From NCBI GenBank assembly GCA_016722515.1, contig JADKJE010000002.1, positions 779,682 through 843,681 of the forward strand: a stretch of DNA of 64,000 nt, read 5' to 3'. The notes under the pieces are model-generated. The model worked only from the letters and a program-made list of their open reading frames with translations, was not told the origin of the DNA and did not search any database. The stretch's first letter is position 1; each line of letters begins with the position of its first letter. This document shows, piece after piece, positions 33,034 through 60,799 of the stretch. This DNA comes from Alphaproteobacteria bacterium. GTDB lineage: Bacteria; Pseudomonadota; Alphaproteobacteria; Rickettsiales; JADKJE01. The position numbers and the translations under genes are program-made.

Positions 33034-33035
33034 TC

Positions 33036-35625: not shown

Positions 35626-35628
35626 AAA

Positions 35629-35985
35629 TTATGCTTGATAGTCTTCAAATTCCCAGGCACAAATTTTACCAATCTTAACGGCTAATTGTTGCCAATCATT
35701 ACCTGTGCATGTTGATAAATAATCTTCTATTTTATCGCGGATAATCTGAATATCGTATGATGAAACAATCAATAAATGACGTCCCCAAAGTGCTTGTAAC
35801 GTACATTCATTCTTAAGCCATTCTGGTGTACATACTGTTAGATAAAATATGTCTGTGGCATCAGAATCATTTGCTCCAATATCCAGCCAAAGTTGGATCA
35901 TAAAACAATCATCTTGTTCTGGTTCATATTTCTCCAAATCCGGTATATTTGGAGAAAACACATTTTTCAATATAGGTTTAATCAT
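35629..35985 (-). CDS. Imm8-like immunity protein
   Basis: 118 aa; FYLTVCTPEWL...LLIVSSYD...CAWEFEDY pattern recalled from the Imm8 family; ATGA overlap with the upstream gene. Confidence 0.6.
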   Translation of the reverse strand: MIKPILKNVFSPNIPDLEKYEPEQDDCFMIQLWLDIGANDSDATDIFYLTVCTPEWLKNECTLQALWGRHLLIVSSYDIQIIRDKIEDYLSTCTGNDWQQLAVKIGKICAWEFEDYQA

Positions 35986-39324: not shown

Positions 39325-39382
39325 AAATAAACACCCCCAAAGATAACGATAGCCCCTTATATAGCATTCCCCACTTACTATA

Positions 39383-40090
39383 TTATGAAGCAACTGTTTC
39401 CTTGTCCAGGAATAATTTATCTTGAGTATTGGTATGTTCTAATAATTTTCTTTGTTGGATTCTTGTATCTTTGGGACGTATAAAAGAGATTGAGATATAG
39501 ATTCCTTGCTTATTTAGAGCTTCATAAATATGTTTTATAGGCACAGAAACGTGTTTAATTAACATATGTTCCATGCCCAGTCTTGTCCCAATTATCCTAT
39601 TTATTCGGAAAACAGGTAAGGTTGAAATCGTAAATTGAAAATAACAACCTCTCTCTAGGGCATTCATTACAAGAAGCTTATTAATGTTAAAATTGATATC
39701 AGTGTGACGGTAATTGGGGGCCACAACAGTACGACCTATTTCAAAATATCCATGTCTGTTGAGCTCAAGTTCTGGAAATAAGTCTTTTACCATAAAACCA
39801 TCTTCTTCAAGAGGCAATATACATGGGTTATTAATAAGTGAGACAACTAGTCGACTCCCGCCAATCACAATATGGCCCAGTCTGGCAATAGCTATAGTGC
39901 CTTTATTATCAAAAGCATCGCATCCACCAGAAAAATTTTTTAAACCCAAATCCTGCTTATAGCATTGTTCGCGTAGTACAAAGTATTGGTTAATGAAATC
40001 TTGATTATCGGTGATTTCAATGATGAGATCAGTCGTTTCGAGATCACGGTACGTGATCAAGGATATTTTTTTTGGGTGAGATTTCTGCAT
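39383..40090 (-). CDS. GNAT-fold N-acyltransferase, LuxI/FeeM/OlsB-like (putative N-acyl amino acid or acyl-HSL-type synthase), module A
   Basis: FVLREQCYKQDLGL...CDAFD...IGGSRLV...LPLEEDGF...YFEIGRTVVAPNYR resembles the acyl-ACP-dependent N-acyl synthase pattern (R..VF..LGW..D.FD...G..RL...P.E...E.SR.AV...R). Confidence 0.5.
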   Translation of the reverse strand: MQKSHPKKISLITYRDLETTDLIIEITDNQDFINQYFVLREQCYKQDLGLKNFSGGCDAFDNKGTIAIARLGHIVIGGSRLVVSLINNPCILPLEEDGFMVKDLFPELELNRHGYFEIGRTVVAPNYRHTDINFNINKLLVMNALERGCYFQFTISTLPVFRINRIIGTRLGMEHMLIKHVSVPIKHIYEALNKQGIYISISFIRPKDTRIQQRKLLEHTNTQDKLFLDKETVAS

Positions 40091-40294
40091 TTAGTTTCCC
40101 AATGAGAAGTAAGTAAACTCGAAGGGTATATAAACAAATATTTAAGGCTATTCAAGACATATTTAAGATAAATTAATAATTATTCAATATATGCAATATA
40201 CTATTGTATATACATTAATTATTAATATGCAATAAAGTTTGTTGTTATTTTTGTATAAATTGGTTAGGGTTGGAGGCATATTAAGGAGGGAGAG

Positions 40295-41806
40295 GTGTTT
40301 TCTAAGCTTGCTATTCGAACAAAACTTGTTGTGATGATGATGGCAATGCTTTTTGTCGCCCTATCGATTGTTTCCTTTTCATTTATTTTCTATGATCTCA
40401 GAACAACGAAATCATCAATTGTTAATGAAATAAATTTGCTTTCTACAGTCGTTGGGAAAAGATTAGCACCAGCGATTGTGCTTGGAGATGAATTTAGAAT
40501 TCATGATATAATTGAAGATGTTGCGACTAAGAGTTCTATCGTTAACGCGTGCATATATGGCGTGGAGGGCAAGCTTCTTGCAGAATTGAATGAAGGAAGA
40601 AAATATAAATGTTTCAAGAAAAATAAAGAAATAATTATGGCTGGAGATTATATATATGTTTATAAAGAAATAAAATCAAAAAATTCTATTGTTGTTGGCT
40701 ATATATTTATCATTTCGGATGAAAAAGACATAAGAGAGCATTTAATTAGGTTGATATATATTGTTTCTATTTCATTTGTATTGTTGTTAATAATATTCTA
40801 TATAGCTATAAAATATACTCAGCCTATTATTACATATCCTATTACAAGATTGGTTGAGGTTGCTGCAAAAGTTAAAGAGGGTGATTATTCGATTAGAGCG
40901 AATAAATTTAGCGAAGACGAAATGGGAACATTGGCGGACACATTCAATTCCATGCTAAACACAATACATGATCGAGATATGAATCTAAAGGATATGAACC
41001 AATCCTTAGAACAAAAAGTCCAAGAACGCACTGAAGACCTAGAATACGCTCTAAAAGTAAAAGGAGATTTCCTCTCCAACATGAGCCACGAAATCCGCAC
41101 GCCCATCCATGGTGTTCTCAGTTTCATCCGGCTTTTGGTAGAAGAATGGGATACTGCGGATGATGCCTTGCTATTCAACTATGCCCAGCGATCCCGTAAA
41201 TCCGGTGAGCGGCTGTTGCTTTTGATTAATAACCTGTTAGATATGTCTAAATTTGAGAAAGGGGCGGTACAGCTGGAGCGTAAAGAATTGCTGTTCAGTG
41301 ATCTGATTCAAACCGTTATTGCAGAAACCAGCGGAGTAGTCCAAGCAAAACATGAGAAGCTAGTGTTTCAACCCATGGCCAACGAACCATTAGTGGAAGT
41401 AGACGAGGGACGGATGGCGCAGGTGATGACCAATTTAATTGGTAATGCTGTTAAATATTCTGAGAAGGGCACCATAAGGATTTCCCAGAGTGTTAATCCA
41501 GAAGCTATTTTTCTTGAGGGGGTGGCTCAAGCACCAGGTATGATCATTTCAATATCAGACGAAGGGATTGGTATCCCTGAAGATGAATTGGTCAAAATAT
41601 TTGATAAATTCTTTGAGAGCAGCCTTACTAAAACTAAAGCCGGTGGAACAGGTTTAGGACTTGCCATCTCTAGAGAAATTGTTAAGGCGCATTTAGGTAC
41701 CATTTGGGCAGAGAATAATAAGAATGGAGTAGGAAGCACATTTACTTTCGTGTTTCCCTTAAAGGAGATTCCAGGCATCACTCAGGCCACTGAGAAGTAT
41801 GTATAG
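40295..41806 (+). CDS. sensor histidine kinase (2 TM + periplasmic CHASE8-like domain, HAMP, HisKA, HATPase_c), module A
   Basis: AGGAGG RBS + GTG; TM1 aa 12-32, TM2 about aa 150-172, HAMP (PITRLVEVAAKVKEGDYS...FNSM), H-box SHEIRTPIHG, N-box LIGNAVKY, G1 DEGIGI, G2 GGTGLGL. Confidence 0.9.
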   Translation: MFSKLAIRTKLVVMMMAMLFVALSIVSFSFIFYDLRTTKSSIVNEINLLSTVVGKRLAPAIVLGDEFRIHDIIEDVATKSSIVNACIYGVEGKLLAELNEGRKYKCFKKNKEIIMAGDYIYVYKEIKSKNSIVVGYIFIISDEKDIREHLIRLIYIVSISFVLLLIIFYIAIKYTQPIITYPITRLVEVAAKVKEGDYSIRANKFSEDEMGTLADTFNSMLNTIHDRDMNLKDMNQSLEQKVQERTEDLEYALKVKGDFLSNMSHEIRTPIHGVLSFIRLLVEEWDTADDALLFNYAQRSRKSGERLLLLINNLLDMSKFEKGAVQLERKELLFSDLIQTVIAETSGVVQAKHEKLVFQPMANEPLVEVDEGRMAQVMTNLIGNAVKYSEKGTIRISQSVNPEAIFLEGVAQAPGMIISISDEGIGIPEDELVKIFDKFFESSLTKTKAGGTGLGLAISREIVKAHLGTIWAENNKNGVGSTFTFVFPLKEIPGITQATEKYV

Positions 41807-42413
41807 GAAGCGGTTATAAAGTGTAAACGTTAATCAGCCAAGAAGTGCATAACGTTGACTGAGGCATAGCGGATACAGAAACCATCGTCAATGACAGGCT
41901 GTACAGTTCCAATGAGGTCATAATCCAAGTGCACATTATTATGGGGGGATAAATGCTTAGCGAAAATGAATTAATAGATGCACTATGCATGTATCTAAAA
42001 AGCCATGATTATAAAATTGTGGTAGCTCGCACAACGAAAGAGAAGGGAATCGACGTGATTGCTAAAAAGGGGACTAGCCGACTTTTAATCGAAGCCCAAG
42101 GTGACCCCGGCTCTTTTAAGGGTAGTAAGCGATATGAAAGAACGTTTAGTCCTTCTCAGATTTCAACAAGCGTTTCCACAGATTTATATCCCGCGGCTGA
42201 TTTAAGCAGTCACGAGCGCCAAGGCGAAGATAAAATTGCTCTAGCATTTCCAAATCATCCTACCTATCTTACGTTTATAGCCAAAATCAGGCCGGTATTG
42301 GATGAGCTTGATATTACGGTCTTTCTTATCGGTGATGATCGATCTGTCACGTGTTTGCAAGGTCATGAATGTTGGAGATCATTTGATGTTGCCGCTGTTG
42401 ATAACATCTTGTC
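41221..42413 (+). repeat. near-identical segmental repeat, copy A (kinase 3' half + cassette copy 2)
   Basis: Essentially identical to 49495-50769 apart from a few substitutions, two 1-nt indels, one G in the G-tract and an 81-bp block. Confidence 0.9.
41913..42413 (+). repeat. 0.5-kb cassette, copy 2, G6 tract at 41943-41948
   Basis: Same boundaries as copies 1 and 3. Confidence 0.9.
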
Positions 42414-42474
42414 GGCTTTTTTTACATCAGACTGTACTTTATACGCTGTTGACTCAATAGGCTGTTGTTCGTAA
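41953..42474 (+). CDS. small PD-(D/E)xK-like protein, copy 2 (ExK lysine replaced: IEAQG)
   Basis: Paralog of 32108-32584; tail after DNILS differs (AFFTSDCTLYAVDSIGCCS*). Confidence 0.5.
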   Translation: MLSENELIDALCMYLKSHDYKIVVARTTKEKGIDVIAKKGTSRLLIEAQGDPGSFKGSKRYERTFSPSQISTSVSTDLYPAADLSSHERQGEDKIALAFPNHPTYLTFIAKIRPVLDELDITVFLIGDDRSVTCLQGHECWRSFDVAAVDNILSAFFTSDCTLYAVDSIGCCS

Positions 42475-42572
42475 TCAGCTATGCTTTTTTCATCACCTGA
42501 ATTAGGCTCTTTTAACAGCTTGATATAATTAGTACCATCTTGTGATAACTTAAAAGGCTGATTGAGATTCAA
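42363..42572 (-). pseudogene. ORF fragment: C-terminal tail paralogous to 43325-43553, running antisense into cassette copy 2
   Basis: DGTNYIKLLKEPNSGDEKSIADYEQQPIESTAYKVQSDV versus DGDNYIELLPKTDSGYKKRRDDYGKQPIESTAYQVQNTV. Confidence 0.35.
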
Positions 42573-42583
42573 AAGAAGTGTTA

Positions 42584-43303
42584 TTATTCCTTGAAATCTT
42601 TAGGATTAAAATCAACATTCTCCTCTACACCTGTTATTTCAAAATCTCTATCTTCTAAATATCCAATAACTCCATGTGCAAAATAAGGGTCTTTAGCTTC
42701 AAATGTTTGACCCCCATCAAGATCATATTGACCGATGGGGGGCTCTGGTACAATTTGTCCATTCTGGTCATAAGTTGGTAGTGAAAAGTTTCGACTGACT
42801 TTACCAGATCTGTTTATAAGACTTATATCACTGTATAACAGCCATTCAGCAGGTCCATTTTTAAGAAAAGGCCAAATAAAACCATCTTTATCGATGATAA
42901 TATAACCACAATCCAATGGACCATCCATTTCCCAATTTTCGTATCCTTCATTACCGCTATCAGGACGCATTAAATACTTATAATACCCCCCTCTAAATCC
43001 TTTATAATTTTCTAGAATCTGATCCTTTGAATGAGTTGCGTTTAAGCTCATTAACTTCTGTTTGTCCTTAAGAAGATAACTTCTTGGTTGCTTCAATCGT
43101 TCTTTGAAATAATTATTGCTGTTTTTTCCAGGTATTCCATATATAAGATTGCCCCAATATTTAATTTCTATTTTTATTGGATATATGTAGCTTGTATGCT
43201 TTTCTTCCAGTGGAGAATATCTTTCTTCAGCAAAAGAGTTGCTGCATGCGCATATGATAAATACCATAAAAAGACAATTAACGATTTTTATAAATTTTCT
43301 CAT
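42584..43303 (-). CDS. lipoprotein (239 aa), unknown function; paralog of 35982-36725
   Basis: Signal peptide with lipobox-like IICAC; GGAG RBS; conserved C-terminal block shared with the 247-aa protein. Confidence 0.6.
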   Translation of the reverse strand: MRKFIKIVNCLFMVFIICACSNSFAEERYSPLEEKHTSYIYPIKIEIKYWGNLIYGIPGKNSNNYFKERLKQPRSYLLKDKQKLMSLNATHSKDQILENYKGFRGGYYKYLMRPDSGNEGYENWEMDGPLDCGYIIIDKDGFIWPFLKNGPAEWLLYSDISLINRSGKVSRNFSLPTYDQNGQIVPEPPIGQYDLDGGQTFEAKDPYFAHGVIGYLEDRDFEITGVEENVDFNPKDFKE

Positions 43304-43324
43304 TTATTATTTGACTCCACATGT

Positions 43325-43553
43325 TTAAGGATTTAACCACGCATTAACTGCGGCTCTGACAGTGTTTTGCACTTGGTATGCAGTTGACTCAATAGGCTGT
43401 TTTCCGTAATCATCTCTCCTTTTCTTATAACCTGAATCGGTCTTTGGTAACAGCTCAATATAATTATCACCATCTTGATTTATTCCAAAAATAACGGCCT
43501 GCAGCATTGCTTCAGAATTCAAGGAAGAATCATCAATTGATGAATAAGGAGAG
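43325..43553 (-). pseudogene. 3' fragment of an unknown gene truncated by IS3
   Basis: Open frame runs out of the IS3 left end; ends ...GKQPIESTAYQVQNTVRAAVNAWLNP*, 21 nt before the lipoprotein gene. Confidence 0.4.
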
Positions 43554-43623
43554 TGACGTGCTCCCCAAAAATTGGTCCACAAAAAAGTAGAGTCTGTTAA
43601 CTTTAACCTAAAAGGAGCAGACT

Positions 43624-43887
43624 ATGAAAAAGCGTTACACGGAAGATCAAATCATTCGCATACTTCATGAGCATGAAAGCGGTACTGGAACAGGAGATTT
43701 ATGCCGGAAATATGGGATAAGTTCAGCAACATTTTATAAATGGAAATCGAAGTACGGTGGGCTTGGTGTATCTGAAGCAAGCAGATTGAAGGCGCTTGAT
43801 GAAGAGAACCGTCGTTTGAAGAAGCTTTTAGCTGAGGCTGAATTAGACAAAGCGATATTGAAGGAAGCCCTGTCAAAAAAGTGGTAA
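43624..43887 (+). CDS. IS3-family transposase OrfA (HTH)
   Basis: [20 protein letters not shown]...[20 protein letters not shown]...[20 protein letters not shown] is typical IS3 OrfA. Confidence 0.9.
43875..43881 (+). promoter_or_regulatory. programmed -1 ribosomal frameshift heptamer AAAAAAG
   Basis: A6G lies in the orfA/orfB overlap, 4 nt before the orfA stop. Confidence 0.75.
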
Positions 43888-44771
43888 AGCCTGCATCTCG
43901 GCGTTTGTTGGTAGAAGATATCTGCCAAACGAAAGGTTTATCAGAGCGTCGCGTTTGCAGGCTATTAGGATTTGCTCGCAGCACCCACCGTCATAAGCGG
44001 AAGCATGATGATAGTGAGCTGCGTGCTGTCCTAAAGAAACTTGCGCACGAGCGTTGCCGTTTTGGTTACCGTCGTTTGGCTATTTTATTGAAACGAGAAG
44101 GTTATGTTATCAATTTGAAGAAAGTTTACCGATTATACCGAGAAGAAAATTTATCTGTTAAACGTCGCAAGGGCAGGAAACGCGCATTGGGAAGCCGCGT
44201 TCCCTTGCCATGCTCTCGCCGATTGCACGAAGTGTGGTCACTTGATTTTATGAGTGATGCTTTAGCAGATGGCAGAAGATTCCGTATCCTTGGGATTATG
44301 GATCACTATAGCCGCCAATGCCTTAACCTCGTTGCAGACCTGTCGATTGGGGGTCACCGCGTCGTACGTGAACTTGACGTTCTGATTAAGCGATATGGAA
44401 AGCCGGGGACAATCATCAGTGATAATGGTACAGAATTGACAAGCAAAGCGGTGTTAATGTGGGCAGAGCATCATGGGATCAAATGGCACTATATCCGTCC
44501 TGGAAAGCCTTCAGAGAATGGTTTTACAGAAAGTTTAAATGGGAGGATCAGCGATGAATGTTTAAATGAAAACTGGTTTACAAGTCTGCGGGAAGCCAGG
44601 GCAATGATTGAAGAATGGAGGCAGGATTATAACCATGTGCGCCCCCATTCCAGCCTGGGTTACCAGACACCCGCACAATTCGCCGCGATCAACACCGCAT
44701 TGGGCATGCCCAATGCGGTGTTGATCTCGAAACCAAAAGCAGTTATAAAGAACTCAAGACCCTACTTCTAA
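43881..44771 (+). CDS. IS3-family transposase OrfB (DDE integrase core)
   Basis: WSLDFMSD...[11 protein letters not shown]...[18 protein letters not shown]...[15 protein letters not shown]. Confidence 0.9.
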
Positions 44772-44807
44772 CTGGTACAACAATTGGGAGCACCTCAGGA
44801 GAAGTTT

Positions 44808-45068
44808 CTATGTATTGCTATAATTTATGAGCAGAAGACACCCGCCAAGGCAACGATTTCCTTTGTGAGCAACAAGCACATAAGTCTCTAGCTCGTAATC
44901 AATACCTTGATCAAGGGAAAGTGTCTTCTCAGTGACAGGCTTAGAAGCAAATATTCGCTTTCTTAGGTCGATATACTGTTTAATAAGATTGGCATCGTCA
45001 GTTGCTTCAAATATAATTTCCTCAGAAAGTTGTGCCTCAAATTCAGTTTTCTCTAGTCCCAATCTCAT
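44808..45068 (-). pseudogene. N-terminal fragment of a third LuxI/FeeM-like N-acyltransferase paralog, truncated at the IS3 right end
   Basis: IIFEATDDANLIKQYIDLRKRIF...YVLVAHKGNRCLGGCLLLI aligns with LIIEITDNQDFINQYFVLREQCY...IAIARLGHIVIGGSRLVV of 39383-40090. Confidence 0.6.
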
Positions 45069-45345
45069 ACCTTTCCTGGATCAACATTAAAATGTGCTTC
45101 CTATCAATCTTTCTTAAGTCAGTATCTCATGTTTATTAAATCCGTCTCATATTAGGTTAAGGAATTTGAATTCGCAAACTTTGGAGTTTCACATTTTGAA
45201 AATGTTTTTAGTCTTTAGCTATTTTTTATGTCTAAACAATTAAATCAAACATGATGGAATTATCAATTTGTTAAGAGAAAGAGTCGGTTACAAAACATTC
45301 TATGATTCGTGATGGAATGGCTACGTAATTTGACAATTTTTTAAT

Positions 45346-45372
45346 ATTGTATTAATATCTCATTAATACAAT
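45346..45372. promoter_or_regulatory. perfect 11-bp inverted repeat ATTGTATTAAT-N5-ATTAATACAAT upstream of TBDR-B
   Basis: Read directly; ends 16 nt before ATG 45389. Confidence 0.35.
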
Positions 45373-45388
45373 GGTCCGTTGAATTTGT

Positions 45389-47386
45389 ATGGGGGACATT
45401 ATGCGGTTTTCTTTTTGGGTAGGCTTTTGCGCTTGTTTAATTTTCAGTTTCCAAGCACTTGCAGCGGATGATTCAGATGAGCTTATGAAAATGGATTTAA
45501 AAGATCTTTCTTCATTGAAGGTTACTTCTGTTGGAAAAGTTGAAGAAAATGCGTTTGATGCCGCAGCTGCTATTTATGTGATAACTGAAGAAGACATTAG
45601 GAATTCCGGAGCAACTTCCGTGCCAGAATTGTTGAGAACTGTTCCTGGTGTTCAGGTTACAAGAACAGATTCAAGCCGTTGGCGTATTTCAATAAGAGGA
45701 TTTAATGAAGCTTTTACCAATAAGCTTTTGGTTCTAATCGATGGTAGAAGTGTATATACACCGCTCTTCTCTGGAGTTTATTGGGATACACAAAATGTTT
45801 TATTGGAGGATATCGCAAGAATTGAAGTTATAAGGGGGCCTGGTGGCACAATGTGGGGTGCCAACGCTGTGGCGGGGGTTATTAATATTATTCGCAAAAG
45901 CGCGTCTCAAACTCAAGGGGGATTTGTTAAGGCTTTATATGGAAATGTTGAAAGAGGAGCATTATCAGGTCGTTATGGGGGGAAAATAGGTGACAAAGGT
46001 TATTTTAAAACCTATGCAGAAACATTCGATCGTGATGAATCATTAAGGCCAGACGGAACTGGACTAAATAATGATTGGAGAGTGTCTACTGGTGGTTTTC
46101 GGATGGATTTTGATTCAATTAATAACAATCAAATCACATTTCAGGGGGATATTTATAACGGTATTAAGGATGGTGTATCTTATTTGCCCGATCTTCCCTA
46201 CCCGACAATAAACACAGTTGTAAGAGACGAAGAATTGAGTGGTGCAAATTTACTCACCCGATTTAACCATCACCATGAAGATGATTCTACAAGCCAAATT
46301 CAGGCTTATATTGATTATACCAGAAGAAATAATATCTCTTTAGATCAACGGATATATACTTTGGATTTGGATTATCAACGTTCTTGGATTGGAAATGGAA
46401 AGAATGACATTGTCGTTGGAGGGGGTGTAAGAGTTATCAAAGACTCACTTGATGAGACAGCTTACATCCGATATTCAGAAAGTAATAGAACAGATGAAAT
46501 TTTCAATGTGTTTGCTCAAGATAAAATTTCGCTTATTCCCGATAAGTTATTTGCTACATTGGGAACAAAGCTTGAATATAACCAGTATACAAATATAGAG
46601 CTTCAGCCCTCGGCCAAGATCTCATACAAACCAAAAGAAAATCAAACAGTTTGGACTTCTCTAAGTAGGTCTGTACGAACACCTTCACGAACGGAGCAAG
46701 ATGTATCCGTTATTGTTGCAGGCATTCCAGGAGGATTTGCAACATGGAATGGAAATAAAGATTTAGATAGTGAAAAGTTGATTAGTTTGGAGGGAGGATA
46801 TCGGATTAAGCCGACCAAACAAACAATGCTTGATTTCACTACTTTTGTGAATTGGTATGACAACCTTAGAACCACAGAAAAGGGAGCCGGTTTTCTTGAT
46901 ACAACTACCACATTCCCTCCGCATATAAATTTGCCATTTACTTTTGAGAATTTAGGTGCGGCTGAAGTTTTTGGAACTGAGTTATCAGGAAGTTGGAATG
47001 TAACAAAGAAGTTGAGCTTATCAGGTAGTTATAGTTATCTGCGCTTAAATTTACACCGTGATGTAGGTAGTAACGATACGTCATTTGAAAAAGCAGAGGA
47101 TCAGTCGGCACAAAATCAATTCAATCTATCTTCTGTCTATAAATTTACTCCAAGTCTTTCTATGAGCAATATATTGTCTTATGTAAGTGAGCTTAAAGGT
47201 TTTTCTGCACCTAGTTATTGGAGATTTGATACCTCAGTTAATTGGAACCCTATTGAGCATCTAGATTTCAGCCTTGTTGGACAAAATTTGCTTGATCCAT
47301 CTCATCCTGAAACGAGCGCACCGCTTTATGGTGAAGAATCCGAAATCAGAAGAAGTGTCTATGGTAAAGTAACATGGCATTTCTAA
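45389..47386 (+). CDS. TonB-dependent outer-membrane receptor, module B
   Basis: Signal peptide ...FQALAADD; plug (IYVITEEDIRNSGATSVPELLRTVPGVQV...RGFN...LIDGRSVYTP); ends ...YGKVTWHF; full-length paralog of 37402-39324. Confidence 0.9.
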   Translation: MGDIMRFSFWVGFCACLIFSFQALAADDSDELMKMDLKDLSSLKVTSVGKVEENAFDAAAAIYVITEEDIRNSGATSVPELLRTVPGVQVTRTDSSRWRISIRGFNEAFTNKLLVLIDGRSVYTPLFSGVYWDTQNVLLEDIARIEVIRGPGGTMWGANAVAGVINIIRKSASQTQGGFVKALYGNVERGALSGRYGGKIGDKGYFKTYAETFDRDESLRPDGTGLNNDWRVSTGGFRMDFDSINNNQITFQGDIYNGIKDGVSYLPDLPYPTINTVVRDEELSGANLLTRFNHHHEDDSTSQIQAYIDYTRRNNISLDQRIYTLDLDYQRSWIGNGKNDIVVGGGVRVIKDSLDETAYIRYSESNRTDEIFNVFAQDKISLIPDKLFATLGTKLEYNQYTNIELQPSAKISYKPKENQTVWTSLSRSVRTPSRTEQDVSVIVAGIPGGFATWNGNKDLDSEKLISLEGGYRIKPTKQTMLDFTTFVNWYDNLRTTEKGAGFLDTTTTFPPHINLPFTFENLGAAEVFGTELSGSWNVTKKLSLSGSYSYLRLNLHRDVGSNDTSFEKAEDQSAQNQFNLSSVYKFTPSLSMSNILSYVSELKGFSAPSYWRFDTSVNWNPIEHLDFSLVGQNLLDPSHPETSAPLYGEESEIRRSVYGKVTWHF

Positions 47387-47904
47387 GAAAAAATTTAGCT
47401 TTAATAATGATTGGTTTGGGGTTGCTAATGAGCCAATCTTATCGGGTTTTAGCAGCAGATATTTATTTTGTTAAATCGCTTTATATATATAACTTCATTA
47501 TGGCAACTGAATTTTATCCTGCCTTGAAGCATACCATAACTATTTGTACAATTGGAGATGATCATTTTGGTACAAGTTTAGATAAGGCTTCTGAGAAACT
47601 TTCATCTCGCTATGAGATAATTATCAAAAGGGGTGTATTAATCGATGATATTCCTCATTGCAATGCTTTATTTGTCGGCTCTTCTGAGGCATATCGATTA
47701 GAAAAAATCTTTTTTAAGATGGCCGATCTTCCTATTCTTTCTATTTCAGAAATTAAGGATTTCGTCAATAAGGGTGGGATAATCGAGTTCAGAGATATGA
47801 GGGATGGAAAAATAGGATTTGCTGTGAATATAAAGACAGCTAAGCAACTAAAGTTAAAGTTTGATCCTGGGCTTTTGGAGTTAGCCGTTGAAATTGTCCA
47901 TTAG
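47374..47904 (+). CDS. YfiR-like (DUF4154) periplasmic protein, module B
   Basis: Signal peptide ...YRVLAAD; ITICTIG, CNALFVGS, PILSISE...GGIIEF, FAVNIKTAKQLKLKFDPGLLELA; 13-nt overlap with TBDR-B. Confidence 0.8.
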   Translation: MAFLRKNLALIMIGLGLLMSQSYRVLAADIYFVKSLYIYNFIMATEFYPALKHTITICTIGDDHFGTSLDKASEKLSSRYEIIIKRGVLIDDIPHCNALFVGSSEAYRLEKIFFKMADLPILSISEIKDFVNKGGIIEFRDMRDGKIGFAVNIKTAKQLKLKFDPGLLELAVEIVH

Positions 47905-48493
47905 ATGAGTTAGTGACATCTTTTAAACAGAGCATCACTAGGTTCTTTTTATATCGAGTGTTTAAAAAATCATTTTTAAAAGGATAGTTAAAGCAATTTA
48001 TATCTAGTCCTAGTTTTTTTATTGATCTTCTGTAATTTATAGTGTGAATTTTAGATGATTTAGCAAATATACTTGATATATTATTGTCTAGGCTCCGAAT
48101 TATTATATAGCGAAATAGATCGGCTACTAATCCTTGTTTTCTAAATTCAGGCAGTACAGCGAGTCTTGATATCTCAGAGTAAGCATGGTATTGTAAATCA
48201 GGTATAAAAGTTGAAAGTGGAAAATTTTCATTTTCTAGGGGGATAAGATTCTTATTTTTTGGATATGATGTTGTAATTCTGGCTCCGCCAACACATACTC
48301 CATTCGATAGAATTATTAAGAAGTCACTTTGGAAATCAAATTCGTCAGGATCAACTTCAGGAAGGTTAATATTGCGTATATGCATTTCATTTCTATAAAC
48401 ATTTTTAACAATATCATAATAATCTTTGATGACGTGAACGTCCGTGGAGAACGAAAATTGCAAAGACCCTAGCGTGTTTTGAGAGACTAACAT
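47840..48493 (-). CDS. GNAT-fold N-acyltransferase, LuxI/FeeM/OlsB-like, module B
   Basis: DEFDFQSDFLIIL...VGGARIT...IPLENENF...YSEISRLAVLPEFRKQGL; 3' end overlaps the YfiR-like gene's 3' end by 65 nt. Confidence 0.5.
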   Translation of the reverse strand: MLVSQNTLGSLQFSFSTDVHVIKDYYDIVKNVYRNEMHIRNINLPEVDPDEFDFQSDFLIILSNGVCVGGARITTSYPKNKNLIPLENENFPLSTFIPDLQYHAYSEISRLAVLPEFRKQGLVADLFRYIIIRSLDNNISSIFAKSSKIHTINYRRSIKKLGLDINCFNYPFKNDFLNTRYKKNLVMLCLKDVTNSSNGQFQRLTPKAQDQTLTLVA

Positions 48494-48556
48494 TTGTTCC
48501 TCCTGCCCAGTTTAGTTGATGAGTATAGTTAAAATAGCTAGTTTGGAAACAAGATT

Positions 48557-50080
48557 ATGAATGGTTATATCAAGAACTTAATTGGAAATAAATCGCTCAG
48601 ATCAAAATTGCTTATACTCTCACTGGGATCATGTGGAAGCATTATCATGGTACTATATGTAGCATTCGTTATAACAACCTATTTTGACTCAAGAAACGGT
48701 TTATCACATGAATTAAAACTTCTAGCTCAACTGGTTGGAAACAGAAACGCCGTCTTGATGAGCTTTCAAGATTATGATGAAATCAGAAAAAATCTTAAGA
48801 TTTTTGATGTTAAAAAAGATGTTATAGCTTCTTGTATTTATTCAAAGAATCAAGAGTTGGTTGTGTCCTTAATTAAGGATGGGAATCCATTTTCTTGTAG
48901 TCCTTATGCGACAAAAAATTGGAATTACCTGACTGTTAACGAAGATATAGAACTAAATAATGTAATCTTAGGTAAAATAATTATTTATGCAAAAACAAAT
49001 TATATAATAAAAGATCTTATAATTCGCTTAACATATGCATCTGGTATATTTATAATAATATCAATAATTGTTATTTTGTTTTCTTATAAAATTCAAACAT
49101 TTATCTCAATCCCGATTGATAATTTAATAAATATAACTTCTTCAATTAAGACGGGGAATTATAATATACGTGCGAAAAAATTATATGAAGACGAAATTGG
49201 GATTTTGACAGAATCGTTTAATTCAATGTTGACCACAATTCATGAGAGGGATTTAAATCTAAAGGAAATGAACCAATCGTTAGAACAAAAAGTTCAAGAA
49301 CGCACCGAGGATCTAGAATACGCTCTCAAAGTCAAAGAAGACTTCCTCTCGAATATGAGCCACGAAATTCGCACTCCTATTCATGGAGTAATTAGTTTTG
49401 TGCGCCTTTTGGTCGAAGAATGGAATACCTCAGATGATGATATACTGTTTAATTATGCTCAGCGTGCTCATAAATCGAGTGATCGGCTTTTGGCTTTGAT
49501 TAATAACCTGTTAGATATGTCTAAATTTGAGAAAGGGGCGGTACAGCTGGAGCGTAAAGAATTGCTGTTCAGTGATCTGATTCAAACCGTTATTGCAGAA
49601 ACCAGCGGAGTAGTCGAGGCAAAACATGAGAAGCTAGTGTTTCAACCCATGGCCAACGAACCATTAGTGGAAGTAGACGAGGGACGGATGGCGCAGGTGA
49701 TGACCAATTTAATTGGTAATGCTGTTAAATATTCTGAGAAGGGCACCATAAGGATTTCCCAGAGTGTCAATCCAGAAGCTATTTTTCTTGATGGGGGTGG
49801 CTCAAGCACCAGGTATGATCATTTCAATATCAGACGAAGGATTGGTATCCCTGAAGATGAATTGGTCAAAATATTTGATAAATTCTTTGAGAGCAGCCTT
49901 ACTAAAACTAAAGCCGGTGGAACAGGTTTAGGACTTGCCATCTCTAGAGAAATTGTTAAGGCGCATTTAGGTACCATTTGGGCGGAGAATAATAAGAATG
50001 GAGTAGGAAGCACATTTACTTTCGTGTTTCCCTTAAAGGAGATTCCAGGCATCACTCAGGCCACTGAGAAGTATGTATAG
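48557..50080 (+). CDS. sensor histidine kinase, module B (G1 ATP-lid box disrupted by a compensated frameshift)
   Basis: Same architecture as 40295-41806; the sensor half is highly diverged and the 3' half near-identical; residues FLDGGGSSTRYDHFNIRRRIGI replace FLEGVAQAPGMIISISDEGIGI. Confidence 0.85.
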   Translation: MNGYIKNLIGNKSLRSKLLILSLGSCGSIIMVLYVAFVITTYFDSRNGLSHELKLLAQLVGNRNAVLMSFQDYDEIRKNLKIFDVKKDVIASCIYSKNQELVVSLIKDGNPFSCSPYATKNWNYLTVNEDIELNNVILGKIIIYAKTNYIIKDLIIRLTYASGIFIIISIIVILFSYKIQTFISIPIDNLINITSSIKTGNYNIRAKKLYEDEIGILTESFNSMLTTIHERDLNLKEMNQSLEQKVQERTEDLEYALKVKEDFLSNMSHEIRTPIHGVISFVRLLVEEWNTSDDDILFNYAQRAHKSSDRLLALINNLLDMSKFEKGAVQLERKELLFSDLIQTVIAETSGVVEAKHEKLVFQPMANEPLVEVDEGRMAQVMTNLIGNAVKYSEKGTIRISQSVNPEAIFLDGGGSSTRYDHFNIRRRIGIPEDELVKIFDKFFESSLTKTKAGGTGLGLAISREIVKAHLGTIWAENNKNGVGSTFTFVFPLKEIPGITQATEKYV

Positions 50081-50769
50081 GAAGCGGTTATAAAGTGTAA
50101 ACGTTAATCAGCCAAGAAGTGCATAACGTTGACTGAGGCATAGCGGATACAGAAACCATCGTCAATGACAGGCTGTACAGTTCCAATGATGGCATCTACC
50201 CAGCTGGTCTGCCAAGCCATGTGCAGGCGTGGGTAACAATATCTTTTTGTTTACATAAGATTGTGTTTGAGGTCATAATCCAAGTGCACATTATTATGGG
50301 GGGGATAAATGCTTAGCGAAAATGAATTAATAGATGCACTATGCATGTATCTAAAAAGCCATGATTATAAAATTGTGGTAGCTCGCACAACGAAAGAGAA
50401 GGGAATCGACGTGATTGCTAAAAAGGGGACTAGCCGACTTTTAATCGAAGCCCAAGGTGACCCCGGCTCTTTTAAGGGTAGTAAGCGATATGAAAGAACG
50501 TTTAGTCCTTCTCAGATTTCAACAAGCGTTTCCACAGATTTATATCCCGCGGCTGATTTAAGCAGTCACGAGCGCCAAGGCGAAGATAAAATTGCTCTAG
50601 CATTTCCAAATCATCCTACCTATCTTACGTTTATAGCCAAAATCAGGCCGGTATTGGATGAGCTTGATATTACGGTCTTTCTTATCGGTGATGATCGATC
50701 TGTCACGTGTTTGCAAGGTCATGAATGTTGGAGATCATTTGATGTTGCCGCTGTTGATAACATCTTGTC
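49495..50769 (+). repeat. near-identical segmental repeat, copy B (kinase 3' half + cassette copy 3)
   Basis: See 41221-42413; contains an extra 81-bp block at 50190-50270. Confidence 0.9.
50268..50769 (+). repeat. 0.5-kb cassette, copy 3, G7 tract at 50298-50304
   Basis: Same boundaries; the right boundary abuts an IS30 IRL. Confidence 0.9.
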
Positions 50770-50800
50770 GGCCTGCTCTAAAATGAAGTGCAACACCTAA
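50309..50800 (+). CDS. small PD-(D/E)xK-like protein, copy 3 (IEAQG); tail encoded by the IS30 IRL
   Basis: Identical to copy 2 up to DNILS, then ACSKMKCNT* read from GGCCTGCTCTAAAATGAAGTGCAAC. Confidence 0.5.
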   Translation: MLSENELIDALCMYLKSHDYKIVVARTTKEKGIDVIAKKGTSRLLIEAQGDPGSFKGSKRYERTFSPSQISTSVSTDLYPAADLSSHERQGEDKIALAFPNHPTYLTFIAKIRPVLDELDITVFLIGDDRSVTCLQGHECWRSFDVAAVDNILSACSKMKCNT

Positions 50801-50885
50801 TGATGTTTGTTGTTAAAGACAAGGATATCAAGCTCCAGGAATGTGTTATGGAACACATGCAGAACCATTTCTGGACACCTGAGCA
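50770..50885 (+). mobile_element. internally deleted IS30-family fragment (IRL + internal piece)
   Basis: GGCCTGCTCTAAAATGAAGTGCAACACCTAATGATGTTTGTTGT, then DKDIKLQECVMEHMQNHFWTPEQ (equals 34410-34475 of the full copy). Confidence 0.8.
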
Positions 50886-51005
50886 ATTCGCCGCGATCAA
50901 CACCACATTGGGCATGCCCAATGCGGTGTTGATCGCGAAACCAAAAGCAGTTATAAGAAACTCAGGACTCTACTTCTAACTGGTACAACATTTGGGAGCA
51001 CCTCA
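50886..51005 (+). mobile_element. IS3-family right-end remnant (120 bp)
   Basis: ttcgccgcgatcaacacc...ctggtacaacatttgggagcacctca matches 44678-44797. Confidence 0.85.
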
Positions 51006-51057
51006 GAACTTAGAAAAGTGGATTGCGCAGATGTGGCTGATTTAATGGAGGTATAAG

Positions 51058-51663
51058 ATGGTATTGGAAAATAAGCTGAACATCACCAACCAAGTTGAAC
51101 TTGGCAGAGCTGAGGAAAAAATCAGCAAGCAAAAAGCCAAACAGCTTTTTGATACTGAGGAAATCAACAAGATTGAGGTCGGGACATTTGCAGGGCTGGC
51201 GCAGATTCATAGAATCCTATTTGAAGATATTTATGATTTTGCAGGCAAAATCCGTGAGGTGAATATCGCCAAGGGCAATTTCCGCTTCGCTCCGCTGATG
51301 TATTTGAAGCCGTCGCTGGAACATATCGACGCAATGGCGCAAGGCAGCTTTGATGAAATTATTGAAAAATATGTTGAGATGAACATTGCCCATCCCTTCA
51401 GAGAGGGCAATGGACGCGCAACGCGCATCTGGCTTGATGTTATACTGAAAGCAAACATCCAAAAAGTGATTGATTGGAATCTGGTGGATAAGGAAGCATA
51501 CTTATCCGCCATGGAACGCAGCGTGGTGAAGGACGTTGAAATTAAGCAACTTCTTGGAGCTGCGCTCACCGATAAAATTCATGACCGCGAAACCTTCATG
51601 AAAGGCATTGACGTCAGCTATTACTATGAGGGCTATAGCGAATTCAAAACCAAGGATTTGTAA
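51058..51663 (+). CDS. fic: Fic-domain protein (AMPylase family), class III-like with a C-terminal inhibitory motif
   Basis: HPFREGNGRATR Fic motif; C-terminal SYYYEG fits (S/T)xxxE(G/N); 201 aa single-domain. Confidence 0.85.
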   Translation: MVLENKLNITNQVELGRAEEKISKQKAKQLFDTEEINKIEVGTFAGLAQIHRILFEDIYDFAGKIREVNIAKGNFRFAPLMYLKPSLEHIDAMAQGSFDEIIEKYVEMNIAHPFREGNGRATRIWLDVILKANIQKVIDWNLVDKEAYLSAMERSVVKDVEIKQLLGAALTDKIHDRETFMKGIDVSYYYEGYSEFKTKDL

Positions 51664-51780
51664 CGAGAGGAATTCAGTGTGGTTTTATGAGCTTTATGCA
51701 TAAGTTCCTATGATCCTTTATGGATCGAATTATACCCCTCACACCTCAAGAGTTAGGATGTTGGTCAAGGAGAAGAAATA

Positions 51781-52536
51781 ATGACAGCAGAAAACCAATC
51801 ATGGAATGTGGGACTGTACAATCAAAATGCTTCCTTCGTATCTGAATACGGACAGGAAGTTTTAGAGTGGCTTGCGCCAAAATCGGGAGAAAGAATTCTA
51901 GATGTGGGCTGCGGTGAGGGAACGCTAGCCCTCATCATGTCGGAATGCAAAGCACATGTTGTGGGAATCGATGCTAGTGAGGATATGGTAGAGGCCGCCA
52001 AAAAGAAAGGAGTGGAGGCCTATGTAATGGACGCGGCAGCCTTATCCTATAAACAAGCATTTGATGCTGTGTTTTCAAATGCTACTTTGCACTGGGTTAA
52101 GCCACCTGAAAAGGCGGTAGAAGGAATCTTTAACGCGCTAAAAGACGGAGGGCGCTTTGTGGCCGAATTTGGGGGAAAGGGGAATGTTGAAACCATTCAA
52201 ACTGCTCTTATAGAATCCGTTTCAAAACGAGACAAGGATGGAAAGGAACTTAATCCCTGGTATTTTCCCTCGCCCGATGAATATAAAAATCTACTTGAAG
52301 CGCAAGGGTTCAGCGTTGAAAAATGTGAACTATTTATACGTCCTACCCCGCTTAAAACCGGTATTGAAGGATGGCTGCGAACCTTTGCAAATCCGTTTCT
52401 ATCATCATTCTCAGAACAGGAAGCCAAGGATATTATAACAGAAGTGATTGTGCAGGTACGCCCTATCCTTTGGAATCAGGATATGGGATGGTTTGCCGAT
52501 TATGTACGTCTTAGGGTGAAGGCAATAAAAGGTTAA
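51781..52536 (+). CDS. class I SAM-dependent methyltransferase (Tam-like)
   Basis: ILDVGCGEGTL motif I, IDASEDM, NATLHW. Confidence 0.8.
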   Translation: MTAENQSWNVGLYNQNASFVSEYGQEVLEWLAPKSGERILDVGCGEGTLALIMSECKAHVVGIDASEDMVEAAKKKGVEAYVMDAAALSYKQAFDAVFSNATLHWVKPPEKAVEGIFNALKDGGRFVAEFGGKGNVETIQTALIESVSKRDKDGKELNPWYFPSPDEYKNLLEAQGFSVEKCELFIRPTPLKTGIEGWLRTFANPFLSSFSEQEAKDIITEVIVQVRPILWNQDMGWFADYVRLRVKAIKG

Positions 52537-55441: not shown

Positions 55442-57685
55442 TTACTTTTTCGTTAGCATCTTTTTTAGATTCTTCTGCATAATTAAGGGAGTTTTGTTCT
55501 TACTATCCTTAGCATGAATCGCGTCTTTATTGATGGTTTGAAGTACTTCCTCTAACGTCTCCTTAGATCCTTTTTGAGCTATGAGATGGAGTGCGGTTAT
55601 TTCGTTTTTGTCTGCAAGTGCAGGATTTGCCCCTGCTTCCAGAAGAGGTTTTACCAAGCTAAAATTTGCAGTGGAACGCAAGGCCTGATGTAAAGGGGTT
55701 GATAGATCATCAGCCTGTTGGTTTATTTGTATTCCATCTTGTTTGAGAAGGTAATTCGCTACATCAAGTTTATTTTTATAGAGAGCACGGTCTAATGGAG
55801 TACGCCCTCTGAGATCATGCTGATTAATGTCTGCTTGTGCTGATACCAGCTTCTTGACTGCCTCAAGTTTACCGTAGAATGATGCCACATAGAGAGGTGT
55901 TATTCCTTTGGCGGTGGCATTAACGTCTGCTCCTGCAGTTACGAGCAGATCTATTATCGTTCCGGAATCGCTTTTGGCAGCAAAATGCAGAGGAGTATAG
56001 TCAGCCTCATCTTTGCCATTGAGGGGAACCTGTTGCTTTATACACTCCTCGACAAGCGTAACCATTTTATTCTTTACTGCATAATGCAGGGGGCTGTTAT
56101 TATCTTCCCAGCCTATATCCATGCTTGCATTATAAGATGTGAGGAGATTAACTATTTCTTTTTGCTCGTGAGCAGCTGCATAATATAAAGGAGTATGTCC
56201 TGTATTATCCAGTGCATTGAAATCTGCTTTATTTTCAATCAGTAAGGTTACCAAGTCTGCATGACCTTTCATGGCTGCTATATGGAGTGGTGTATGCCCT
56301 TTGCTGTCGGGGATGTTGGGATCGGCTCCTTTTTCCAGAAAAACCTGAGCAATATTGGTTTTTCCATGTTTTGCAAGCACATGCAGAGATGTTTGTTCTT
56401 TAGGGGCAAATTGCCTATCCAGATTACTGGGTAAATCGAGATATTCCTGTGTTTTTTCATCAAATTGGTTACGTATCGACCAATGAAGGGGAAATAACTT
56501 ATATTGCATGAGCGCCTCAGCAAAATTGGCTTTCCCATTATCGTGTGCGAAGGCAAATAAGGTTTTCCCGTTAAACTCCTTATCTGTAGAAGCGCCATAC
56601 CGCAACAGAGTATTAAAGAACATTAGATTGTCATGTCTGATGGCGTCATGTAACAGTGAGTCTCCTGATCTTGAGATATGATTTGGATTAGCTCCACGCT
56701 CAAGTAGCGAGTTGCAATCCTGTATGAAGCCGTTATCTGAAAAAATGGCAAGTAAAGAAGCATTATTCAAATTCACTTGATCTGGATGTCTACCTGTTTT
56801 ATCTAAAAAATCTATTAAAGGTCTTTTGCGAATGTAGCAGTGAAAAACATCTAAATTTGCCAGGTAGGTATGTGCTTCTGGGTCACTCACTTTTTTTTCG
56901 GCTAAGTAGTCCACGGATTGTTTGATTATATTTTCTTCTTGTGGTGTCGATACTGGAAGTTTTTTACACCAATCCAGATAGGTACTTGTTTGTGTGTTTT
57001 CTAAATATAATTTCACAGCATCTGCGGTAGCTAACGGGTGTTTATGGGGTGCACGCATGCTTATCGTTTGTTTGGAATGCCCAAGTAATAATGTGTGAGT
57101 CTCTGGAGTTGTTCTCCAATCTTCAGCAAAATTGGACAGGACGGTGCGTGAAGGATCCTGCGTTTTGATGGAATGGACAATTCCATCAATATTCCTTTGT
57201 GTAGAAGTAGGATATTCCTTACCGCCATGAATTATTAAGGCACAGTAATGCGGTAAACGTTCACCATCCAAAACAGACATGCCCCCATAACAGCTCTTGA
57301 GTGAAAGCTGCATACCGTTAAGGGGAGAGGCAGTAGGGGCATCTACGGCGCACTGAGCTAAGATATCAAATACCCCAAATGTCTGCATAAGCTTTTGTTC
57401 ATTCAACAGCTGTATAATATGTTTTTTATTTTGAACCGTACCATGCGCCATGAGATGTATTTGAGTACCAGGGCCAATGCGCCCTTTTAAAGATTTAAGT
57501 TCATTTTCACTTACATAATCTTTTCCATTTCCGATGATAAGATAGGAAAAACTATCAACCTCTGAGGTTTTATGGGTGCAGGCGGCCTGTATTGTTTCAG
57601 CTATTTTTTCCTCAGAAAAATCGGGCCCAATAATAAAAACCATGTCATAGAGGCCTGCGTCAGGCGTTGATTTTGTTGACTTCAT
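55442..57685 (-). CDS. ankyrin-repeat protein (747 aa) with an unknown N-terminal domain, effector candidate
   Basis: About 10 ANK repeats (GDSLLHDAI, GHTPLHIAA, GHTPLYYAA, NNSPLHYAV, DYTPLHFAA, GITPLYVAS, GRTPLDRAL, LSTPLHQAL, EITALHLIA); the N-terminal ~300 aa are non-ANK. Confidence 0.9.
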   Translation of the reverse strand: MKSTKSTPDAGLYDMVFIIGPDFSEEKIAETIQAACTHKTSEVDSFSYLIIGNGKDYVSENELKSLKGRIGPGTQIHLMAHGTVQNKKHIIQLLNEQKLMQTFGVFDILAQCAVDAPTASPLNGMQLSLKSCYGGMSVLDGERLPHYCALIIHGGKEYPTSTQRNIDGIVHSIKTQDPSRTVLSNFAEDWRTTPETHTLLLGHSKQTISMRAPHKHPLATADAVKLYLENTQTSTYLDWCKKLPVSTPQEENIIKQSVDYLAEKKVSDPEAHTYLANLDVFHCYIRKRPLIDFLDKTGRHPDQVNLNNASLLAIFSDNGFIQDCNSLLERGANPNHISRSGDSLLHDAIRHDNLMFFNTLLRYGASTDKEFNGKTLFAFAHDNGKANFAEALMQYKLFPLHWSIRNQFDEKTQEYLDLPSNLDRQFAPKEQTSLHVLAKHGKTNIAQVFLEKGADPNIPDSKGHTPLHIAAMKGHADLVTLLIENKADFNALDNTGHTPLYYAAAHEQKEIVNLLTSYNASMDIGWEDNNSPLHYAVKNKMVTLVEECIKQQVPLNGKDEADYTPLHFAAKSDSGTIIDLLVTAGADVNATAKGITPLYVASFYGKLEAVKKLVSAQADINQHDLRGRTPLDRALYKNKLDVANYLLKQDGIQINQQADDLSTPLHQALRSTANFSLVKPLLEAGANPALADKNEITALHLIAQKGSKETLEEVLQTINKDAIHAKDSKNKTPLIMQKNLKKMLTKK

Positions 57686-59995: not shown

Positions 59996-60799
59996 ATGTT
60001 TGAAGAATATCTGGATAACTTGCGCTCATCGGGAAAGCGGTATTTTACCTTTTCACAGGTAATTGCAGACCTTAGCACCTCGGTTAATAGCGCAAAATCG
60101 GGCTTATATCGATTGAAAACCGAAGGAAAACTCATTACCCCTGCTAAAGGGCTTTATGTAATAGTGCCGCCAGAACACCGGCCTCAAGGCTCTATTCCCG
60201 CTGAGGAACTGGCACCCATCCTGATGAAATATTTAAAAGCAGAGTACTATGTCTCCCTGCTTTCAGGAGCGGCATATTATGGAGCATCTCATCAAAAACC
60301 AGCACGTTTTCAAATCATTACCAACAAACGCATCAAGCATCCGTTGGAATTTGGGCAAATAAAATTAGAGATAATTTATAAGAAGTCCATGACCGGGCTT
60401 CCTATGCAAGATATCGTTGTGAACACTGGCTACTTAAAAATTGCAAGCCCTGAACTTATTGCCTTCGATCTTCTTACCTACCCAAGCCGTGTCGGGGGCT
60501 TAAGTCATATTGCCACTGTCTTATCCGAACTCATAGAGGCAATAGATGCCGATAAACTTATCAAACTGGCTATAATGGTAGGAGCAAAAGCCTGGTTACA
60601 ACGGCTTGGGTTCATTCTGGAAAAAATTGATTCGATGGATGAAGAAAAACGAGTTGGGCTTATAGCCAGCCTGCAAACATATCTCGATGGAAAAATGTCC
60701 GTATTTGTTCCTCTTGCTTCAGAGTTGCCGAAAACCGGCTATCCTCGCATAAGGAAATGGAAAATTATTGAGAATACCGATATTGAGGGGGATTTATGA
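59996..60799 (+). CDS. abiEi: type IV toxin-antitoxin system AbiEi-family antitoxin/transcriptional regulator
   Basis: 267 aa; N-terminal wHTH-like region; ATGA overlap with a DUF1814 nucleotidyltransferase gene; twin palindromes upstream. Confidence 0.7.
   Translation: MFEEYLDNLRSSGKRYFTFSQVIADLSTSVNSAKSGLYRLKTEGKLITPAKGLYVIVPPEHRPQGSIPAEELAPILMKYLKAEYYVSLLSGAAYYGASHQKPARFQIITNKRIKHPLEFGQIKLEIIYKKSMTGLPMQDIVVNTGYLKIASPELIAFDLLTYPSRVGGLSHIATVLSELIEAIDADKLIKLAIMVGAKAWLQRLGFILEKIDSMDEEKRVGLIASLQTYLDGKMSVFVPLASELPKTGYPRIRKWKIIENTDIEGDL

Follow-up and report, generated by a model that had tools for sequence, protein, structure and literature searches.

Gene conversion between dispersed paralogs is well known in bacteria, for example between tufA and tufB of Salmonella and among rRNA operons. 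Several sensor kinases may also converge on a single partner, as in the many-to-one phosphorelays in which LuxN, LuxQ and CqsS of Vibrio signal to LuxU and KinA to KinE of Bacillus signal to Spo0F. Lineage-specific expansion and domain shuffling of histidine kinases were reportedly described by Alm, Huang and Arkin in PLoS Comput Biol in 2006. The present analysis concerns two sensor histidine kinase genes, here called kinase A and kinase B, and the small gene downstream of each, in a 64,000-nucleotide stretch (the window, from whose first letter all positions are counted) of contig JADKJE010000002.1 in assembly GCA_016722515.1. The assembly is the metagenome-assembled genome (MAG) of an uncultured alphaproteobacterium, with locus tags IPP74. 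The 3' halves of the two kinase genes and the DNA behind them form a near-identical direct repeat. This observation is real, and it is a recent recombination (gene conversion) patch of a well-known kind, with a textbook mechanism. The favoured explanation, held at a probability of roughly 0.75, is recent non-reciprocal recombination (gene conversion) between ancient paralogous signalling modules in a variable region rich in insertion sequences (IS).

The locus resembles tufA/tufB-type conversion in that a block of near-identity lies in diverged paralogs, silent sites within it are homogenized, and direct repeats can delete or duplicate. Unlike tufA/tufB, the tract extends beyond the gene over a spacer and a second gene and stops where no further homology exists, and the paralogs differ completely in their 5' halves. 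As in the expansion and shuffling of histidine kinases, a common transmitter is joined to unrelated sensors in one genome; here, however, the junction is dated and resolved to the base, and whole accessory gene sets differ together with the sensor.

Probable recent sequence transfer between the two kinase genes

All features lie on the plus strand unless the minus strand is named. Copy A of the repeat (41221-42413) comprises the 3' 586 nt of kinase A, a 106-nt spacer and a nuclease-like unit of about 500 bp, and copy B (49495-50769) has the same contents plus an 81-bp block. The copies are in direct orientation, 8274 nt apart from start to start. An earlier reading made from the letters alone (the sequence-only reading) had proposed a near-identical direct repeat of 1.2-1.3 kb with these boundaries and a spacing of 8.3 kb. 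Both a MAFFT global alignment between 39900-43000 and 48160-51300, inspected through sliding windows of 50 columns, and a repeat search independent of that alignment, which returned the same blocks at spacings of 8274 and 8356 nt, agree with it. That reading had also described a sharp step in identity between the genes, and the sliding windows show such a step and not uniform divergence. The sensor halves are 34-56% identical in DNA, a range (about 35-55%) in which the alignment is unreliable. From about 40896/49170 the windowed identity climbs to 68-90%, and positions 40896-41220 and 49170-49494 are 77.5% identical (73 differences in 325). From 41221/49495 to 42413/50769 each 50-column window is 96-100% identical, except for two windows over the 81-bp block, and the tract overall is about 99.7% identical between the copies. 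Past 42413/50769 identity falls to 20-46%, the level of unrelated sequence. The GGC found at both 42414-42416 and 50770-50772 is a chance match, and in B it is formed by the first bases of an IS terminal repeat.

Differences within the tract amount to four substitutions, three 1-nt indels in G runs and the 81-bp block. Two substitutions (41342 C/G and 41344 A/G) share one codon, which encodes Q349 in A and E in B, and the other two (41494 T/C and 41710 A/G) each occupy a third codon position. Kinase B carries two of the indels, an extra nucleotide at 49792 and a missing one at 49838. The third lies in a G tract 4 nt 5' of the ATG of the small open reading frame (ORF), which has six G in A (41943-41948), seven in B (50298-50304) and five in a third copy of the unit, copy C, before the ATG at 32108. 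This variation among three copies may reflect slippage in the ribosome-binding region or sequencing error. The 81-bp block is present in copy B only, at 50187-50267 or, equivalently, 50190-50270, the placement being shiftable by 3 nt owing to a TGA microhomology. The few substitutions, the two 1-nt indels in the kinase gene, the G-tract difference and the B-only block with its microhomology had all been described correctly in the sequence-only reading.

A maximum chi-square search placed the breakpoint at 41221: the preceding 325 nt hold 73 differences and the following 1195 aligned nt hold 4 (Fisher p = 6.8e-47), which gives difference rates of 22.5% upstream and 0.33% inside the tract. In the 325 nt just upstream, 48% of all third codon positions differ. 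When only identical residues are counted, the fraction of third positions that differ is 0.45 in the sensor half, 0.43 in the S-helix/HisKA segment (kinase A residues 238-308) and 0.01 in the tract, and the corresponding protein identities of kinases A and B are 34%, 85% and 98-99%. The near-identity runs past the kinase stop codon, through the spacer and the second gene, and the 106-nt non-coding spacer (41807-41912) is identical between the copies. Purifying selection cannot explain the tract, because silent sites, the non-coding spacer and the second gene are homogenized as well. Judged from the sequence, the step fits no other reading than that about 1.2 kb passed recently from one locus to the other. 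By the same silent-site counts, the HisKA segment is as old as the sensor half and strongly constrained in protein, and the tract is young. The HisKA region was also considered as an older layer of conversion, which was rejected, its silent sites having diverged as much as those of the sensor half.

Under the favoured explanation, one locus would have been overwritten from the other by non-reciprocal homologous recombination, presumably conversion of the RecA type. The exchange would have been resolved on its left immediately behind the DHp helix, at codon 309 in kinase A and 313 in kinase B, within the conserved kinase core. From there the copied DNA would have extended over the catalytic domain and stop codon and across the spacer and the small nuclease-like gene. 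The four substitutions, the G-run indels and the 81-bp difference would have accrued after the exchange, and an IS would later have inserted at the right-hand edge, or the edge would have been rearranged. The repeats could themselves recombine, deleting or duplicating the intervening 8.3 kb and leaving an A-type sensor on the shared transmitter. This product is predicted from standard homologous recombination because the repeats are direct and 8274 nt apart, and such deletion or duplication is plausible.

Kinases, signalling modules and paralogs

Kinase A (40295-41806, 503 aa) consists of a CHASE8-like sensor, HAMP, HisKA and HATPase_c domains, and its catalytic boxes are intact: the H-box SHEIRTP, the N box, the G1 box DEGIG (at 422), and the F and G2 boxes. 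It was not found in the protein collections, though neighbours from the same MAG are present there. It is possibly annotated as a pseudogene or uncalled in the deposited record. Kinase B (48557-50080, 507 aa, IPP74_08585) has the same architecture without a DxGxG G1 box, and it is identical to the collection record P0002 over the 477 aa of that record, which starts later. Its two indels, both in G runs, compensate each other and put 46 nt (49792-49838) out of frame, so that EGVAQAPGMIISISDEGIG becomes DGGGSSTRYDHFNIRRRIG, 15 residues are scrambled and the ATP-binding G1 box is lost. Of the H, N, G1, F and G2 boxes expected of a functional kinase, kinase B thus fails at G1. Relative to the paralog P0001, which reads D-G-V, it has one extra G in a run of four and one fewer in a run of three. 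The deposited IPP74_08585 protein carries the scrambled stretch too. Kinase B may be a pseudo-kinase, or its sequence may contain homopolymer (long-read) errors left unfixed by polishing inside the repeat. The possibility that the kinases are truncated hybrids was rejected, as many homologues of about 500 aa end at the same point.

Each kinase is accompanied by a set of partner genes. In module A (36814-40090) these are all on the minus strand and encode a YfiR-like protein (36814-37401), a TonB-dependent receptor (37402-39393) and a GNAT acyltransferase (39383-40090). In module B (45389-48493) the receptor (45389-47386) and the YfiR-like protein (47374-47904) are on the plus strand and the GNAT acyltransferase (47840-48493) is on the minus strand. 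The YfiR-like partners are periplasmic proteins of the DUF4154/YfiR-like type, and the GNAT proteins are of the Acetyltransf_5/N-acyl amino acid synthase type. The N-terminal halves of the kinases matched NCBIfam NF053592 ('sensor histidine kinase, YfiR-like protein-associated') with scores of 133 and 105 against a cut-off of 194, and the adjacent periplasmic proteins matched NF053591 ('TOL_0243 family YfiR-like periplasmic protein') with 69 and 66 against 125. The model matches and the neighbourhood fit the names of these families; unlike members, these proteins score below the cut-offs and are to be read as relatives. Between the modules, the receptors are 42% identical in protein, the YfiR-like proteins 25-27% and the GNAT proteins 23%, and gene order and orientation are unlike. 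Because the partner proteins are 23-42% identical and the arrangement differs, the modules are regarded as old paralogs. No response regulator adjoins the kinases, and the sole one among the ORFs scanned is an OmpR-type regulator at 3660-4394, 36 kb away. A receptor, a YfiR-like protein, a GNAT acyltransferase and a CHASE8 kinase without an adjacent regulator could be a make-and-sense signalling set.

The same MAG holds at least five kinases of this type, the others being P0001 (MBL0320058), P0003 (IPP74_08285) and P0004 (MBL0318904). The sensor halves of the five paralogs are 21-33% identical to each other and 25-35% identical to homologues of other organisms. Their transmitter halves are 79-100% identical in protein to each other and 47-53% identical to those of outsiders. 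At the protein level, the pattern of concerted evolution is therefore found in the transmitter halves and not in the sensor halves. P0001 has a third sensor type, and its transmitter is identical in protein to that of kinase B over about 240 residues, apart from the scrambled stretch of B. Homogenization of silent sites is seen in the tract of kinases A and B, and their HisKA region is near-saturated at silent sites. The tract is the youngest visible event in a family that joins a single transmitter type to unrelated sensors. That selection by itself is able to hold the protein sequence is seen from the HisKA segment, which is conserved despite near-saturated silent sites. The presence of one transmitter type on several sensors would fit many sensors signalling to one partner, kept partly by selection and partly by conversions. 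This is like the many-to-one phosphorelays, in which transmitters are kept compatible, with the DHp region here 85% identical in protein despite the near-saturated silent sites; unlike in them, convergent signalling is here a proposal made from the genes. Searches for close relatives in the genome-contig collection returned only kinases 25-32% identical, from unrelated MAGs, and the plasmid collection gave no meaningful match. Look-ups of exact proteins returned no entry for kinases A and B, small ORF B, P0001, P0002, a 239-aa ORF within 42363-43582 and the GNAT protein of module A. In the literature on histidine-kinase gene conversion or concerted evolution, and on modules of DUF4154, TonB receptor and kinase, nothing relevant was found.

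The GC content at third codon positions (GC3) differs between the parts of these genes. It is 0.25-0.27 in the sensor halves (40295-41005 and 48557-49279), 0.24-0.33 in the partner genes, 0.35-0.49 in the transmitter halves (41006-41803 in kinase A) and 0.39-0.42 in ordinary genes of the window. This contrast is compatible with GC-biased conversion of the shared part or with a different origin of the sensor modules. The latter belongs to an unlikely alternative in which the shared 3' half and unit are the remnant of a recent duplication, and AT-richer modules, originating within this genome or elsewhere, later took the place of the 5' sensors and partner genes by recombination. The lower GC3 of the sensor halves and partners, the five different sensors on one transmitter type and the difference in gene order between the modules are all in keeping with such sensor swapping, which would nevertheless require more and larger replacement events than conversion. 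The composition gap may equally stem from the amino acids that membrane and sensor segments contain, or from GC-biased conversion. Both explanations end in the same mosaic, so that the present data do not separate them.

The downstream nuclease-like unit

The small ORF of copy A (41953-42474, IPP74_08545) encodes 173 aa of a PD-(D/E)xK nuclease-fold family, with the residues D34...E47-x-Q49 where the family has K49. That of copy B (50309-50800, IPP74_08590) encodes 163 aa, of which residues 1-155 are identical to A before the frame runs into an IS end. Apart from the G tract, the A and B units are identical. Copy C of the unit lies at 32067-32568 (ORF 32108-32584, IPP74_08485), with no kinase nearby and with unrelated flanks, and it is 92% identical to A and B in DNA and 86% in protein. 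All three copies share the same ends, TTTGAGG at 5' and CTTGTC at 3', and the stop codons of all three ORFs lie past the end of the unit, in differing flanking DNA. Word-based search returned these three copies only, and a HMMER search returned 600 relatives of about 135 aa.

In the alignment of this family, D34 and G32 are invariant and E47-A48-K49 and T52-S53 are nearly invariant, which constitutes the PD-(D/E)xK motif. Copy C keeps E-T-K-G-G-T-S-S at this site, and A and B read E-A-Q-G-D-P-G-S, so that they are without K49, T52 and S53, three nearly invariant residues of the family. An AlphaFold (AF2) model of the small ORF had a mean pLDDT of 86, and its best Foldseek matches were an fdxN-element excision factor (2okf), UPF0102 (3fov) and tRNA-splicing endonucleases, with Hjc resolvases lower. 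Sequence links below threshold were found to YraN/UPF0102, Mrr_cat, MTES_1575, NucS_C and Hjc. By its predicted fold and its family motif, the small ORF family belongs to the PD-(D/E)xK nuclease superfamily. It is like the YraN/UPF0102, Mrr_cat, Hjc and XisH-type nucleases in fold and in the D...E-x-K family motif, and unlike them in that the matches are below threshold and Q replaces K in copies A and B.

The 81-bp block of copy B brings a -35-like TTTACA to a position 18 nt 5' of the CATAAT of the unit (50250-50279). Inspection by eye found TGGACA at 17 nt in copy C and no good -35 in copy A. On these sequence features, the three copies of the unit may be differently expressed. An Rfam scan of 39000-52000 found no RNA family.

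That the unit is an integron cassette was rejected. An attC-like hairpin was not detected, the 3' 100 nt folding no better than shuffles (z = -0.11), and among about 50 ORFs of the window no Pfam match to a tyrosine recombinase or phage integrase was found, the only integrase-type matches being the rve transposase domains of IS. Terminal inverted repeats and target-site duplications were absent at the three junction pairs inspected. Exact-pattern searches gave no match to the 30-nt 5' end of the unit in viral or metagenome contigs and, in metagenome contigs, none to the degenerate junction peptide EQKVQERTEDLEYA.

These results bear on an improbable explanation in which the unit of about 500 bp is itself mobile, of a homing type, and its spread to the second kinase locus by break repair co-converted the 3' half of the kinase. 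Three copies with identical ends in three unrelated right contexts and two left contexts would be expected of such a unit, as would the identity of the A and B units outside the G tract, and the predicted PD-(D/E)xK fold, with the fdxN excision factor as top match and the D...E-x-K motif in the family, would supply a nuclease. It is countered by the lack of terminal inverted repeats, target-site duplications, an attC-like hairpin or an adjoining recombinase, and by the loss of K49, T52 and S53 in the two copies concerned. Members of the family, at about 135 aa, are mostly single-domain proteins whose mobility was not established in this analysis, and break repair would need homology on the right-hand side, which is absent. 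A stronger version, in which the unit is a previously unrecognized selfish element with fixed ends that moves by break-induced repair, drags its neighbours along and drives transmitter homogenization in place of RecA-mediated conversion, is if anything a shade more doubtful.

Tract edges and insertion sequences

The left edge of the tract (41221/49495) lies inside continuous homology, as expected of the end of a conversion. An older homologous flank is found on this 5' side only, and the 3' side has none. Copy B is directly followed by GGCCTGCTCTAAAATGAAGTG, the left terminal repeat of an IS. The IS fragment itself (50770-50893) is of the HTH_32/rve transposase type and begins with its left terminal repeat GGCCTGYTCTAAAATGAAGTG immediately after copy B. 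A longer copy of that IS, itself without a right end, starts at 34123 and includes a truncated transposase (HTH_32 and rve, 34300-35079). Behind the fragment lies the right end of an IS3-family element with its terminal repeat (50874-51005), which is 92% identical to 44666-44798. The latter is part of an IS3-family element between the two repeat copies (43555-44797; orfA 43624-43887, orfB 43881-44771). To the right of copy A, a fragment of a minus-strand ORF (42363-42572) has, judged from its homologue at 43325-43582, had its last seven or so codons replaced by the end of copy A. The three right flanks that meet the unit at one nucleotide, together with the coincidence at its left end, suggest that the unit ends are preferred junctions.

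Several points weigh against the favoured explanation. Beyond 42413/50769, on the right, the loci have no homology, hence no classical two-ended conversion is visible. The right edge is common to the third unit copy and coincides with the IS end in B, and the right end of the 81-bp block lies no more than 3 nt from the 5' end of the unit. The latter coincidence hints at a junction-specific process rather than random deletion. As a family-wide explanation, conversion among the other three paralogs is argued from protein identity only, and in the HisKA region of kinases A and B such high identity is found together with near-saturated silent sites. Both directions are compatible with the data, either conversion of the 3' half or replacement of the 5' sensor modules, and effects of assembly or polishing on the exact count of differences are possible. 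The sequence-only reading had taken the step as the signature of recent gene conversion or recombination between old paralogs. The abrupt step, the silent-site contrast and the 23-42% identity of the partner genes bear out recombination between old paralogs. A simple two-ended conversion does not stand, given that the junction at the 3' edge is also used by the third unit copy and is an IS end in B.

Further remnants of rearrangement were seen in this part of the window. The IS terminal repeat found after copy B, placed back to back, forms two MITE-like elements of about 90 bp at 30432-30521 and 30993-31082 (GGCCTGTTCTAAAATGAAGTG). A minus-strand ORF of 239 aa within 42363-43582 is a distant relative of 35982-36725, which adjoins an Imm8 gene. 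It sits between two homologous C-terminal ORF fragments; IS3 cuts one of them at about 43555, and the end of copy A cuts the other. Together with a 69-aa fragment, the 239-aa ORF is perhaps one frameshifted gene. A near-perfect palindrome of 46 nt in the 3' end of the IS3 transposase (44684-44729) occurs again in the fragment 3' of copy B (50892-50937).

Reliability of the assembly and genomic setting

Repeats of this kind are an assembly and polishing risk in this MAG. The copies are not one collapsed sequence, because they have different flanks, four substitutions and an 81-bp indel; they may be a strain-mixture chimera, as a formal possibility. A short-read Logan contig (L006, from SRR11673995) corresponds to 44768-49339 with zero mismatches and stops short of spanning the repeats. 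Its start falls within the final 30 nt of the IS3 element, and it supports the sequence of module B and a connection of the IS3 end to this module and to the sensor half of kinase B. It ends at 49339, in the conserved kinase core, where there is no 31-mer in common with kinase A. This end hints that another paralog, probably P0001, shares a further exact repeat that is at least 31 nt long.

An assembly or polishing artefact, whether strain variants stitched in tandem or divergent copies homogenized by short-read polishing, is very improbable, for although the source is a MAG, each of the 1-nt indels falls within a G run, where long-read errors are typical, and kinase A and several module-A proteins are missing from the protein and contig collections in which their neighbours are present, the flanks differ on both sides of copies that are also distinguished by the 81-bp indel and four substitutions, the 8.3 kb between them holds unique genes, the short-read contig matches without a mismatch, and polishing cannot turn about 22% divergence into identity over 1.2 kb.

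The window also contains a variable zone with immunity-type genes (DUF1963, Imm70 and Imm8), a Fic/DOC gene, an AbiEi/AbiEii pair and two large ankyrin-repeat proteins (31314-36000, 51058-51663, 59996-61581, 22452-25571 and 55442-57685). As gene content, the ankyrin-repeat proteins, the immunity and toxin-antitoxin genes and the IS elements suggest a symbiont-like, host-associated organism and a variable region.

Significance

The mechanism itself is well known, and this locus contributes its family context, a discrete unit downstream of the kinases and a kinase B that is possibly dead. The analysis flags for annotation that kinase B is possibly catalytically inactive, marks the 8.3-kb segment between the repeats as potentially unstable in structure, and places the small downstream gene in a widespread, unnamed nuclease-fold family. 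For the two-component systems of this organism, the locus is a clean case, resolved to the base, of recombination reshaping sensors, in which unrelated sensor modules carry one transmitter. It points to a way in which new input channels could be gained by a bacterium whose output wiring stays as it is.

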